The notes under the pieces are model-generated. The model had not been told where the DNA came from. It was given only the letters and a program-made list of their open reading frames with translations, and did no database searches. A program made the position numbers and the translations under genes. DNA of 33,239 bases, from assembly GCA_031285625.1 (NCBI GenBank), contig JAITVV010000055.1, forward strand, positions 1-33,239. Direction: 5' to 3'. The stretch's first letter is position 1. Every line of letters starts with the position of its first letter. The stretch comes from Prevotella sp. GTDB lineage: Bacteria > Bacteroidota > Bacteroidia > Bacteroidales > Dysgonomonadaceae. This document shows, piece by piece, positions 28,011-33,239 of the stretch.

Positions 28011-28171
28011 TTGTTTATTATGTGATATTGTTAATAATGTTACAAATCACTTAACCAAAAAGAGGTATTTTCTTTATTCAACCTTATCAGTTCTGTAGTT
28101 TCTCTGTAACAAAATTGTAAGTGATTTGCATTGTAGAAATTCAAATCAAAATGTGTAAGACAAACTATTCG

Positions 28172-30212
28172 ATGAATAAAAGAAATCATAATCTATTAAA
28201 AGCTTTATTGCTTGTGTTTATACTGTTTTCTGTAAATATAATTTATGCACAGACTATATTAAAAGGAAGCGTAAAGGATGCAAAAACACAGGAGGCACTT
28301 CCGGGTGTTACAGTTTCAGTAAAAAATAGTACAACCGGAACTATCAGCGATGCCGACGGGCATTATGAATTGGCCCTCAGCCCAGGTAAGTATACCATTA
28401 TTACATCCTACATTTCATATCAACCAATGGAGATTACCGATGTAGAAGTAAAAAGGGGAAGTTCATCGACATTGGATATTCCAATGACAGAAGCTTCTCA
28501 GAATCTGAATGATGTAATTATAGTAGCCCGAAAGAATATGGAGTCGGAGATGAATCTGATGGTTGAACGTCAGAGAGCTACTGTAGCTGTAGAAAATCTG
28601 GGTGCAAAGGAAATGTCGAGCAAAGGTTTATCAACAGTAGCAGACGGAATAAAAAAGATTACCGGAATCTCTATGGAAGGAAATACAAAAGTATTTGTAC
28701 GCGGATTAGGAGACAGATATAGTATGACATCACTCAATGGCTTCCCGATTGCCTCGCCAAATCCGGATAACAAGCTGATACCTTTAACACTCTTCCCTAC
28801 GTCGGTTGTTAAGAATGTAACTGTAAGTAAAGTGTATCAGCCATCCGTATTTGGTGATTATTCGGGAGCACACATCGATGTGGAAACAAAAGAGAATATT
28901 GGAAATGACTACATAACTATTGGTATATCTACCGGGGGCAAAACAAATACACTGTTTAAAGACTTTTATGCATCGGATAAGGGTGGAGTAGGTGTTCCCT
29001 TTTTAGGAATATCCAAAGGTATGAACCTTCCGGACAATATAAAGGATATGAAATCCGATGATTTTATCTCTTATTCCCGCTCAAACAACCCTTTCAAGAC
29101 GACTTTTGCTATTGAGAAAAATAAAGGAATGCCTGAACTGGGGTTGGAATTCGGTATTGGCCGCTCATGGAATGTTGGAGGTCAGAAGTTGAATGCCCTC
29201 TTTGCCATAAACTATAATAATGATTATACAATATATGATGATGCATATGTGTCGACGGTAAATGCTCAGGGAGAGGTTCGTAATATGTTCAATTATAATA
29301 AATACAGTTATGAAACCACAATGACCAGCCTGGGACAGGTCAGTTATACTCTGAGGAAGAATGACATTATTTCTTATAATATAATGTATGTAAATAATAC
29401 GGAAGATGATTATACCGAGCGTGACGGATTCGATTCGGAAGGTATAGACCTGAAAGGGAGTAATAGTGTTTATCACATATATACGCTGTTTAACAATCAA
29501 TTAACAGGTAAACATCAGTTTAATAAACTATTTGCAGACTGGCAGGTATCATATGGAAAAACAACCAGTGACGAGCCCGACAGGCGACAGGTCATGTATA
29601 CAAAAAACAGCGATGGTAAGTTATCCCTTTTCAAACTCAACCAGCAGGAAACGATGCGATTTTGGGGTGAGCTATATGAGGATGAGTGGAATGGAGATTT
29701 TAAACTGAAATATAATCTCGATGATAAAGAGACAAGCAATAATTTCATACGCTTAGGAGGATCTTTGAGAAATAAGTCAAGAGATTTCTATTCGAGTAAC
29801 TTTTACTATAATGTAAAGAATCTTGATGTACAGGTTGATAATATATATGATACCGATGAATATCTGAACTACGATAATATAGCAAATGGAACTATCACTG
29901 TAACCAAAAATTCGCTTCCTCGCGACAAATATTTTGCAGGGTCTGATATATATGCTGCATTTATCGATATGGAATATTTTCCGATAGAAAACGTGTTAGT
30001 TGCTGCAGGCGTGCGTTTCGAACATTCTTCGCAGTGGGTTCGCTACTGGACTGACGCCGCTGTAGAGAAGAAAACCACACTTGATGCCAATGATCTTTTC
30101 CCAGCCCTGAATCTAAGATATGGTTTAGACCAAAAACAAAATCTCAGACTGAGCCTCTCCCGTACAATAACACGCCCGTCTTTTATAGAAATGGCTCCGT
30201 TTGAATATAAAG
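28172..30212 (+). pseudogene. TonB-dependent receptor truncated by IS110 insertion
   Basis: Signal MNKRNH...IYAQ, CarboxypepD_reg-like domain, plug VRGLGDRY; barrel stops after RPSFIEMAPFEYK with no terminal aromatic strand; last 10 aa come from the IS. Confidence 0.85.
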
Positions 30213-30325
30213 TTCCTATGTTTAAAATCGGAAGCGATGGATAGATAGCAAAAATATAAGCTATAAGTTTTAGTTAATTTTGGTAATGGAGATTACTTAC
30301 TTATTAACTTGAAACAATATAGCTT

Positions 30326-30733
30326 ATGAAACAAAGGAAGGAATTAGATTTCAAAGGACAAAATATCTATGTGGGGATAGATGTTCATTTGAAGAGTTGG
30401 TCGGTAACAGTTTTGTCAGAGACCTCGGTAATGAAGAAGTTTAGTCAAAGTCCTGAGCCGGAAGCATTGTATAAGTTTTTAATAACGAATTACCCGGGAG
30501 CGGATTATCACTCGGTATATGAGGCTGGATTTTGCGGGTTCTGGATACATGAAAGACTGACAGGATTGGGGATTAACAATATCGTAGTGAATCCGGCTGA
30601 TGTGCCGACCAAGAGCAGTGAAAAGTTGCGAAAGACCGATTCCATAGACAGTGGTAAACTGGCGCGAAGCCTGCGGGCTAAAGAACTGAAAGGGATTTAT
30701 ACGCCGGACGGTATATCATTGGAAATGCGCTCT
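30326..30733 (+). pseudogene. Outer IS110 transposase, N-terminal RuvC/DEDD part
   Basis: GIDVH, YEAG, VNPAD, KTDSIDS; breaks at EMRS. Confidence 0.9.
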
Positions 30734-30823
30734 ACTATATAACTTAAATTGAGTATTCATTGTTTATTCTTTTGTAATATATTGTAATACAAGCTCTTTT
30801 ATGTATTGGCTTAAAAATTCAAA

Positions 30824-32191
30824 TTAAGTGATCTCAGTTTTAAGTCTTTTGAGCAGTTCTTCCAGATGGGCAATCTTCTTTCGCTGTACGATAGATTTAT
30901 ATTCGAGATTGTCCAATGGTTTGTACTGCTTACCGGAAGAGACCATTTCATAGTAGATGATGGCCAGTTTACGGGCTGATGCTACGATGGCGTACTTTTG
31001 TCCACCCTTTGCTTTCATTCGTCTGAAATAATCTCCGATCCACGATTTTGACCTGCACATGGTGTTGGCCGCAGTCCTGAAAGCTACTGCTGCTGCATTG
31101 GGTTTCTTTTTGAGCACTTGTGAGCTAATGAGCTAATGAGCTAATGAGCTTACCACCTGAAATTTTGTTGTTTGGGCAAAGGTTCAGCCAGGAAACGAAA
31201 TGGTTTCGCGAAGGCCATTTCGAGAGGTCGGTACCGGTTTCCGAGACTATTTCCAGCGCGGCGATCTCGCTTATTCCCGGAATGTCGATCACATCTACTC
31301 CAAGAATGGCATGGAGGTACTTTCTTATGTCCGCTTTAGGTTGCTTCCGTTTTTTTGCTTTTTTTTTACAGGGTCGACCGGTACGATTTCATGCAATGCC
31401 ATCTTCTTTTGGAAGGCATCCAAGACTCGTTCGATCTGCTGATCGTATAACTCTTTCTGGGATTGCAGGTGCAGATAGGTGTCGTAAGACTGCTTGAGTA
31501 CGAACAGGTATTCTTCTCGCCAGTTGGCCTGTAAGGATTTCCTGAGAGTGTCGCGATCTGCTTTGATTCTGTCTCCGACCAGCAGCAATAATTTCTCCGG
31601 ATCTCTTTCACCGTTTATGATAGCCGAAAGGATCGCCGATCCGGTCTTCCCGGTAATGTCGCTGATGACGGCATGCAGTTTGATGTTCATCAACTCCAGA
31701 GCTTTTTGCATACGCTGGATATAGCGTGTGGAGTCTTGGGTAATGGCCCTGCGTTGGCGCACCAGCGTCCGCAGGGTCTGGGTCGCATCATCGGGCAGGA
31801 AGGCTGAAGCGAGGAATCCGCAACTGTGCAATTGCTGTATCCACTGCGCATCGGACATGTCGGTCTTGCGGCCGGTCACGTTTTTGGTGTGTCGGGAATT
31901 AGCCAGACAGACGCGGAATCCCTGCTCGATGAGAACCGCATACAGATTCTTCCAATACACTCCGGTACACTCCATCGCGACCGAGTCCACATGACACCGC
32001 TTGAGCCATCGGGCAATGGATAATAAATCTTCGGTAAACGCCCCGAATTCCCGAACTGGCTGATTGTCTCGGTCCTGCGGAACAGCTACGGTGATGAGTA
32101 GATCGCCAATATCTATTCCCGCGGCATTCGGATTGACAACAGGGAAAGCCATGCTGTCCGTTTGGTTAGTCGGTTTTGTTTTATTAGCCAT
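30824..32191 (-). pseudogene. Inner IS110 transposase with two frame disruptions (about 450 aa when repaired)
   Basis: GIDIG, MECTG, KTDMSDA; shifted frame IPGISE...SWLNLCPNNKISGG; C-terminus AIVASARKLA. Confidence 0.88.
31121..31150. repeat. 8-bp tandem repeat (TGAGCTAA)x3.75
   Basis: TGAGCTAATGAGCTAATGAGCTAATGAGCT. Confidence 0.95.
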
Positions 32192-32199
32192 GACAAACT

Positions 32200-32360
32200 G
32201 TTTTAAGGGTAAATAAAAAACATCTTGCTGGCGGCATTGCCAAAGCATACTCTACTATACGAACTCGTGGTTCAATCTAAAACTCATCAATACCACCGGC
32301 CATGCTTTGACAAGGGCTCGGGCCCAGTGAGCGATAGACCTTGATACAAAATGTCCTCTA
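32200..32360 (-). ncRNA. Candidate bridge RNA of inner IS110 (ends approximate)
   Basis: Segments match own target (9/10) and donor junction (8/8) in the LTG-RTG-LDG-RDG order. Confidence 0.65.
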
Positions 32361-32412
32361 CAAGGTACAAAAGTTATTTTAGACAAAACATAAACGGGTT
32401 TATTAGGATGCT

Positions 32413-33081
32413 TTGATAAGATTGAAGAACTCGATAACGAAAGAGATGACCCGGCAGAAGAACCGCATTAAGTCACAGCTACGCTATCTGGGTATAGAGA
32501 TCCCTGTAGAGTATCTGGAGCCGTACTCTAACTGGTCAAAGCGTTTCATCGTTTGGTTGAAGCAGGTACAGACGCTTACATCTGTCGGCCGTCAGTCTCT
32601 TGACATTCAGATCAGGCATCTGGAGGAGTTACGCAGGCAGAAGCTGGATATGATGCGAGCTTTGCGGGAATTGGCTCGGACGGAACAGTTCCGCGAACCA
32701 CTACGGTTGATCATGACAGTTCCGGGTATTGGTCAGTCTACAGGGATGGTGTTTCTCTCTGAGATATGCGACATATCCCGTTTCAGGAACGCCGAGCAGT
32801 TAGCAGCATATATAGGCATGATACCGATGTGTCATTCAAGCGGAGAAAAAGATGGGATCGGAGATATTACCGTGCGCAGACACGCTGCCATGCGCTGTAA
32901 TCTGATTGAGGCTGCATGGGTGGCGATCCGGCAAGACCCTGCAATGAATCTGATCTATACGCAGAACTGTAAAAGGATGGCTCCAAGCAAAGCTATCGTA
33001 AAGGTGGCGCGTAAACTGGTCAATAGATTGTTTTTCGTGTTGAAACACAAAATAGAATATGTCAATGGGGTTGCCTCATAG
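32413..33081 (+). pseudogene. Outer IS110 transposase, C-terminal part
   Basis: TVPGIG, AYIGMIP, HSSG, LIEAAW, VARKL; in frame with 30326-30733. Confidence 0.9.
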
Positions 33082-33098: not shown

Positions 33099-33239
33099 TA
33101 AACAGATTTTCCGAGAGAGAATACTACATAAGGTTTGCGGCTTTGAAGTCCGCTTAAAAAAGTTTGCTCCTCTCGCCTTTGTAAACTAATACAGGAACTT
33201 GCGGCAGTAAATATCTGACCGCTGTGGAAAGTCTGTTTA
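33099..33239 (+). ncRNA. Candidate bridge/seek RNA in 3' non-coding end of outer IS110
   Basis: 14-bp closing stem enclosing three hairpins; AGGAACTT complementary to the left junction. Confidence 0.55.

Follow-up and report, generated by a model that had tools for sequence, protein, structure and literature searches.

A nested IS110-family element of the Bacteroidales: borders, a structured left-end RNA family and its candidate guide positions

The stretch of DNA analysed here, referred to as the window, comprises 33,239 nt of contig JAITVV010000055.1 from a Prevotella assembly of the order Bacteroidales. Close to its end, an IS110-family element on the minus strand (the inner element) is located within the transposase gene of a second IS110 element (the outer IS). 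The protein-coding features and borders are collated below, together with the source of each assignment:

30326..30742, plus strand, outer IS110 transposase, N-terminal part (ORF list, Pfam)
30732..30733, core dinucleotide at the right junction (outer-IS relatives and contig joints)
30734..32410, minus strand, inner IS110-family element, 1677 bp (uninterrupted outer-IS relatives and the joined contigs of runs X1 and X2)
30824..31117, minus strand, last piece of the inner transposase frame (ORF list)
31126..31149, minus strand, 8-nt unit three times in tandem, 16 extra bases breaking the C-terminal domain
31325..32191, minus strand, inner transposase ORF1 with the DEDD domain, 288 aa (ORF list, Pfam, NCBIfam)
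31359..31367, minus strand, A9 run at which the frame changes to −1
32411..32412, core dinucleotide at the left junction, AG on the element's strand, with two ambiguous bases at the joint
32413..33081, plus strand, outer IS110 transposase, C-terminal part (ORF list, Pfam)

The inner element splits the transposase gene of the outer IS without a target duplication, and each of its junctions carries one AG core (CT on the plus strand). Three relatives of the outer IS (L014, L016 and L017, from three further genomes in the window's taxonomic family) cross the site unbroken with a single CT, and the window's two outer-IS halves overlap by two bases when placed on them. In contigs of the termite-gut metagenome runs X1 and X2, position 30731 is joined to 32411, with two bases that fit either side. 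As the unbroken relatives and the X1 and X2 joints agree, the inner element was assigned to 30734–32410 with no duplication. These borders are exact, and the event is an insertion at a core dinucleotide; the AG core on the coding strand proposed in an earlier, sequence-only reading of this DNA was upheld at both junctions.

The outer IS is present in several copies, its first 113–118 bases terminating six other contigs of the assembly. The inner element gave one match in its own assembly (itself); a second copy was not found in the window's own genome, and no full-length DNA relative was found in 170 genomes of the family. The outer IS begins near 30209, within the 3′ end of a 707-aa ORF (28121–30244) that we take, from our own reading of the sequence, to encode a TonB-dependent receptor. 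Its leader is only about 117 nt long (30209–30326), and the contig stops inside the outer IS at 33239.

Two further loci carry ends of the inner element. In L013 (genome G007, same genus), a 142-bp miniature at 1408–1549 has both ends and the same core on each side: on the left, a 55-nt stretch of 93% identity takes in six flank bases plus the initial 49 bases of the left end, and on the right, 17 of 17 bases agree over the final 14 bases of the right end together with the core and a single flank base. The miniature holds neither the RNA gene nor a transposase. A 6.7-kb contig from run X1 terminates in the right end of the inner element (window 30729–30871, four differences in 143 nt) next to another flank that has the same three bases past the core as the window; a near-identical element occupies this second site in the X1 sample.

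The inner gene lies on the minus strand in three pieces (32191–31325, then 31292–31125, then 31117–30824). PF01548 and PF02371 were found on these pieces with Pfam, against which the intact relative L154 was also run, so that a DEDD RuvC-like domain and Transposase_20 are both present. NCBIfam model NF033542 (cut-off 140 bits) scored 161 bits on ORF1 of the window and 220 bits on L154. The sequence-only reading had described an IS110-family bridge-RNA element with a larger enzyme of about 450 aa; the domains and scores confirm the family, and intact relatives, which encode 442–471 aa, bear out the size.

Contigs from runs X2 and X3 lack 16 bases near 31121, where the window repeats the 8-nt unit three times. 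The insertion is not an assembly slip, because the X1 contig is identical to the window across 30842–32294. As the inserted bases break the C-terminal domain, the window copy cannot be mobilised by the enzyme that it encodes.

The frame change at the A9 run (31359–31367) is common to the relatives L151, L152 and L153, in which the −1 frame stays open after the run for 177–186 aa, compared with 87 aa in the window. In the wider set, both domains were found in 210 gene copies, and 24 of these have them in different frames (the window, L051–L056, L063–L066, L034, L036, L046 and L151–L153 among the split-frame copies named). A run of exactly nine A stands at the frame switch in 19 of the 24. Split-frame A9 copies are spread over four or more lineages, two of which are families of six copies in near-complete genomes; a −1 or +1 shift is needed for the full-length product. 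From its distribution in the sequences, frame switching at A9 looks like programmed slippage rather than decay; a literature search for work linking IS110 with slippage or frameshifting returned none.

Relatives at 40–50% protein identity were found in 68 of the 401 genomes of the order. One scan of genome contigs confirmed 593 relatives in Bacteroidota, Acidobacteriota, Chloroflexota, Proteobacteria and other groups, the best 80 of which were retained for analysis; a metagenome scan supplied a further 80, including close ones at 77–88%. The leaders of 13 elements align well, and the RNA family was modelled from these 13 relatives as a covariance model of 107 positions (R1). Matches to R1 were obtained in 21 and 27 stretches of the two sets searched, all of them just upstream of the gene and on the same strand, and the structured RNA family is found in 38 distinct loci besides the window. 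G+C-rich relatives gave no R1 match, R1 being narrow.

Three helices with compensatory changes were recovered in the aligned leaders with RNAalifold. In the two alignments used for pair counts (A5 and A6), 82–87% of cells pair, a figure that favours R1 since both were fitted to it, and none of 500 shuffles reaches the observed covariation score in either. Folding of the window leader as a single sequence was no better than that of shuffles (z −0.42), and a search of it against Rfam returned no family, only two chance-level matches (E 3.6 and 8.1). Covariation by itself thus points to a structured non-coding RNA with two internal loops in the non-coding end of the inner element. A box at 32368–32377, just upstream of the basal helix, is conserved in nearly all relatives and resembles the Bacteroidota −7 promoter motif. 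The predicted parts of the RNA, in 5′ to 3′ order, are:

32346..32356, minus strand, basal helix, 5′ strand, pairing with 32218–32228
32337..32340, minus strand, closing stem of the target-binding loop, 5′ strand, pairing with 32298–32301 (helix 1)
32329..32333, minus strand, putative right-target guide, 5/5 pairs with the core G and the first four right-flank bases (30728–30732)
32314..32326, minus strand, hairpin of the target-binding loop (RNAalifold and covariation)
32305..32313, minus strand, putative left-target guide, same sense as left flank and core, 8/9 (9/10 with 32314)
32302..32304, minus strand, handshake-like extension, copying the element's first three bases (32408–32410)
32289..32297, minus strand, closing stem of the donor-binding loop, 5′ strand, pairing with 32230–32238
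32274..32288, minus strand, donor loop 5′ strand, conserved motif containing the formerly proposed RTG (32279–32283)
32261..32273, minus strand, hairpin of the donor-binding loop (covariation; register in the window taken from the alignment)
32252..32259, minus strand, putative left-donor guide, identical to right end and core (30732–30739)
32218..32228, minus strand, basal helix, 3′ strand, containing the formerly proposed RDG (32219–32224)

Helix 1 is paired in 100% and 98.7% of cells, with compensatory changes. The basal helix and the donor-loop closing stem were tested by folding the two strands of each element with one another and, for comparison, strands swapped between elements. Mean energies were −17.5 kcal/mol (own) versus −10.8 kcal/mol (swapped) for the basal helix in 35 elements, and −13.6 versus −8.3 kcal/mol for the donor-loop stem in 34 elements. 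A local stem at 32226–32247 had been proposed earlier; it can be formed, but the comparison of relatives favours other partners for its bases.

All strings named as guides in the sequence-only reading are present on the minus strand where it had placed them. Its left-target guide (LTG, 32305–32314), which agrees with left flank and core (32420–32411) at 9 of 10 positions, occupies a fixed, covarying position in relatives. Of 20000 shuffles of the 219-nt leader, 179 contained, at any place, a 10-mer match with at most one mismatch. In the alignment this guide corresponds to nine columns on the 3′ side of the first loop that end in an invariant AG. For most relatives, the best guide match served to place the junctions, which makes the counts for the left-target and left-donor guides partly circular; independent borders were available for the window and the multicopy families only. 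Best upstream matches of the left guide gave an own mean of 7.62/9 versus 5.97 for guides from other elements, taken as those with at least three base differences. Every foreign guide fell short of the own guide in 14 of 29 elements, and the window's 8/9 was reached by none of 15 foreign guides.

For the right-target guide, the right junction was taken from the left-donor guide match. Bases on the 5′ side of this loop complement the right flank along an antiparallel covariation diagonal; the loop is the first of the two. Right-flank positions +1, +2 and +3 pair with 32330, 32331 and 32332 in 19, 18 and 19 of 26 elements, against 13.0, 10.2 and 8.7 expected; the corresponding z values (4.2, 3.9 and 4.8) are overstated, the relatives not being independent. 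The own mean is 3.54/5 versus 2.28 for swapped pairs, and the window scores 5/5 over 32333–32329, the last base pairing with the core G. The fit is poor in some elements (at most 2 of 5 in 6 of 26). Judged from the aligned sequences, segments of the loop covary with both target flanks.

The bases directly 3′ of the left-target guide copy the element's own left end. The first element base is the same as column 32304 in 25 of 26 elements (14 expected) and the second agrees in 16 of 26; all three agree in 13 of 26, with an own mean of 2.15 versus 1.24. These handshake-like bases (32302–32304) resemble the handshake guide of IS621, and would stand in the same place if the core were read as CT, on the other strand.

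The sequence-only reading had also suggested that the inner element may be programmed to hit another IS110. Several observations speak for such aiming. The site lies within a conserved coding stretch of the multicopy outer IS. Uninterrupted outer-IS relatives carry TCAAAGAAC; the window's outer IS has a G at the eighth place, and the window's right guide, which differs from that of most close relatives at this one base, has a C matching the G where they have U. The right junction on the X1 contig starts with the same three bases, and one relative (L159) is located in another IS110-like gene. ISEc21, an IS110-type element, offers a precedent as an RNA-guided IS inside the transposase gene of another IS; the difference, according to the available text (PMC11187229), is that IS3-family transposase genes are its consensus target.

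The aiming of the inner element at IS110 elements is nevertheless unsupported, because relatives whose left guides are the same or nearly identical have unrelated flanks. Only 1 of the 38 other loci (L159) had the outer transposase next to it, cut at a different codon. A tally of insertion sites had been suggested as a check and yielded a short shared motif next to the core, but nothing else in common between the flanks: in the 16 sites of the window's close group the left flanks terminate in nearly the same six bases (a partly circular count), and the right flank starts AAC in 7 of 14 sites and AGC in 3 of 14, the window among the three. The left guide is mismatched to the outer-IS site at one base, and the miniature of the same genus is placed between another gene and one that, from our reading of its sequence, is presumably ABC-F-like. 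In run X1, word depth is 359 for the uninterrupted outer contig versus 43.6 for the inner element; depth is not copy number, yet these values indicate that most outer-IS copies are unoccupied. Programmed landing in the outer IS is hence considered unlikely, and for the inner element the outer IS appears to be one of many near-cognate sites. As a separate observation, the L159 element (43–855) is 59% identical to the inner element. Next to it stands a truncated IS110-like gene, cut near residue 78, which shares 44% and 29% identity with the two halves of the outer protein.

In the donor loop, the left-donor guide (LDG, 32259–32252) proposed in the sequence-only reading is identical to right end and core (30739–30732) at 8 of 8 positions, a match reached by 130 of 20000 shuffles. 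It holds a fixed position in relatives, in eight columns after the second hairpin, and was found 8/8 at the expected distance in 10 of 12 testable seed elements. The proposed check of guide covariation across relatives came out positive for LTG and LDG and negative for the proposed RTG.

Less probable than aiming at the outer IS is that the remainder of the earlier map holds, namely the IS621 order LTG-RTG-LDG-RDG with RTG at 32279–32283 and RDG at 32219–32224. Both proposed pairings can be drawn, and the 6-nt RDG pairing is the only such place in the leader, but it arises in 26% of shuffles; the 5-nt RTG wobble pairing, with four such places in the leader and at least one in 80% of shuffles, carries no information. 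The RTG bases lie within the donor-loop 5′ strand motif, which is conserved across elements with different flanks and shows no covariation with the right flank; the right-flank pairing is at 32329–32333 instead. The RDG hexamer forms part of the basal helix, on its 3′ strand, and the two strands of this helix change in concert. L152, with the same left end as the window, has other bases at this place and has lost the pairing with the left end; relatives with a different left end keep the basal helix, their 3′ basal strand fitting their own 5′ strand. The right-flank complement precedes the left-flank copy in this clade, and the IS621 order is not found here.

A guide for the left end was not found in column scans against left-end positions 1–16 and 1–60. 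Contiguous pairing of at least 6 nt was sought in relatives, none being consistent, and when the donor-loop 5′ strand was compared by eye with the left end in reverse complement, no more than scattered partial matches turned up, again none consistent. Of the two donor ends, the guide search therefore recovered that for the right end. Position 32282, a variable base in the conserved motif of the donor-loop 5′ strand, shows same-sense agreement with left-end position ~+23 (32388), a variable base in a conserved subterminal motif, in 22 of 26 elements versus 14 expected.

Least probable of all is that the matches are chance or the remnant of a duplicated junction, with no guide RNA involved. In favour of this reading, the leader is A+T-rich and single matches occur in about 1% of shuffles; against it, both matches fall in columns where relatives with other flanks carry matches of their own, inside compensated helices.

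The reading preferred here, to which a probability of about 85% is given, is that the inner element is an IS110-family bridge-recombinase element with a guide RNA in its left end and that it entered its site by RNA guidance at the core. The left end would encode an RNA of about 140 nt (roughly 32356–32218), presumably transcribed and then bound by the enzyme, with the basal helix around two internal loops. In the target loop, the 5′ strand (32329–32333) would pair with the core G and the right flank; the 3′ strand (32305–32313), because it copies the left flank and the AG core, would pair with the bottom strand. The single mismatch of the left guide would set an RNA G against T on the bottom strand. 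As 32302–32304 copy the element's own first bases, they would fit pairing after strand exchange, and the 3′ strand of the donor loop (32252–32259), a copy of right end and core, would serve on the donor side. By recombination at the core, the element probably entered a near-cognate site in the outer IS with no duplication.

In the published IS110 scheme, the left guide runs in the sense of left flank plus core, and the right guide in antisense to core plus right flank; each IS621 loop consists of a stem, the left guide, a stem-loop, the right guide and then two handshake bases (PMC11208160, PMC11208158, available text). Within the same limits, IS621 (Durrant 2024, PMC11208160; Hiraizumi 2024, PMC11208158) resembles the inner element in its DEDD and Tnp domains, a left-end RNA located upstream of the gene, a hairpin-bearing internal loop for the target and another for the donor, a core inside the pairing, the lack of target duplication, and extra bases 3′ of a guide that fit the other DNA after exchange. 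It differs from the inner element in that the strand-specific guide order is reversed here relative to the gene, the two orders coinciding only under a reading of the core as CT, on the strand opposite the RNA. Also unlike the text descriptions of IS621, the 5′ guide of the inner element reaches the inner core base only, the 3′ guide has 9 nt plus 3, and the basal helix encloses both loops.

Relative to the strand of the gene, the guide order found here places the top-strand complement first. This is the order that the available text of Siddiquee et al. (2024, PMC11187229) gives for IS1111-type seekRNA, located downstream of the gene; for IS110-type RNA, upstream of the gene, the reverse order is given. 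The inner element thus shares the guide order of the IS1111 type, whereas its RNA is upstream of the transposase gene. IS1111-type enzymes are 330–350 aa long in the same source, compared with about 450–470 aa in the clade. An upstream RNA together with the IS1111 order is absent from the available text of the 2024 papers, the figures and supplements of which may show the arrangement, and the available text of a review (PMC13604230) has no passage on reversed guide order.

It is tentatively proposed, at somewhat less than even odds, that the clade may be a distinct, undescribed bridge-recombinase architecture. This would combine an RNA that lies upstream and is closed by a basal helix, the IS1111 order in both loops with AG as the coding-strand core, a long 3′ guide extended by three handshake bases, an enzyme of 450–470 aa and, in at least four lineages, a full-length enzyme obtained only by slippage on the A9 run. 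The clade enzyme also differs in length from that of IS621, which has about 326 aa.

Bridge recombinases are under development as programmable tools for DNA insertion and, to our knowledge, nearly all mechanistic work on them concerns IS621 and close kin. An IS110 element with readable guides is in itself an ordinary find. Guide positions are mapped here for a large, phylum-spanning clade, for which intact natural members can be named (for example, L154 and L161); its longer guides on both sides and different strand order provide testable material on guide geometry in relation to the enzyme. The nested insertion constitutes a natural before-and-after pair, with empty and filled sites in one sample.

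In L066 (genome G283), two copies of a related element stand head to tail, with a right end, a single core and the next left end in succession; as read from the sequence, this joint is the same as a circle would have.
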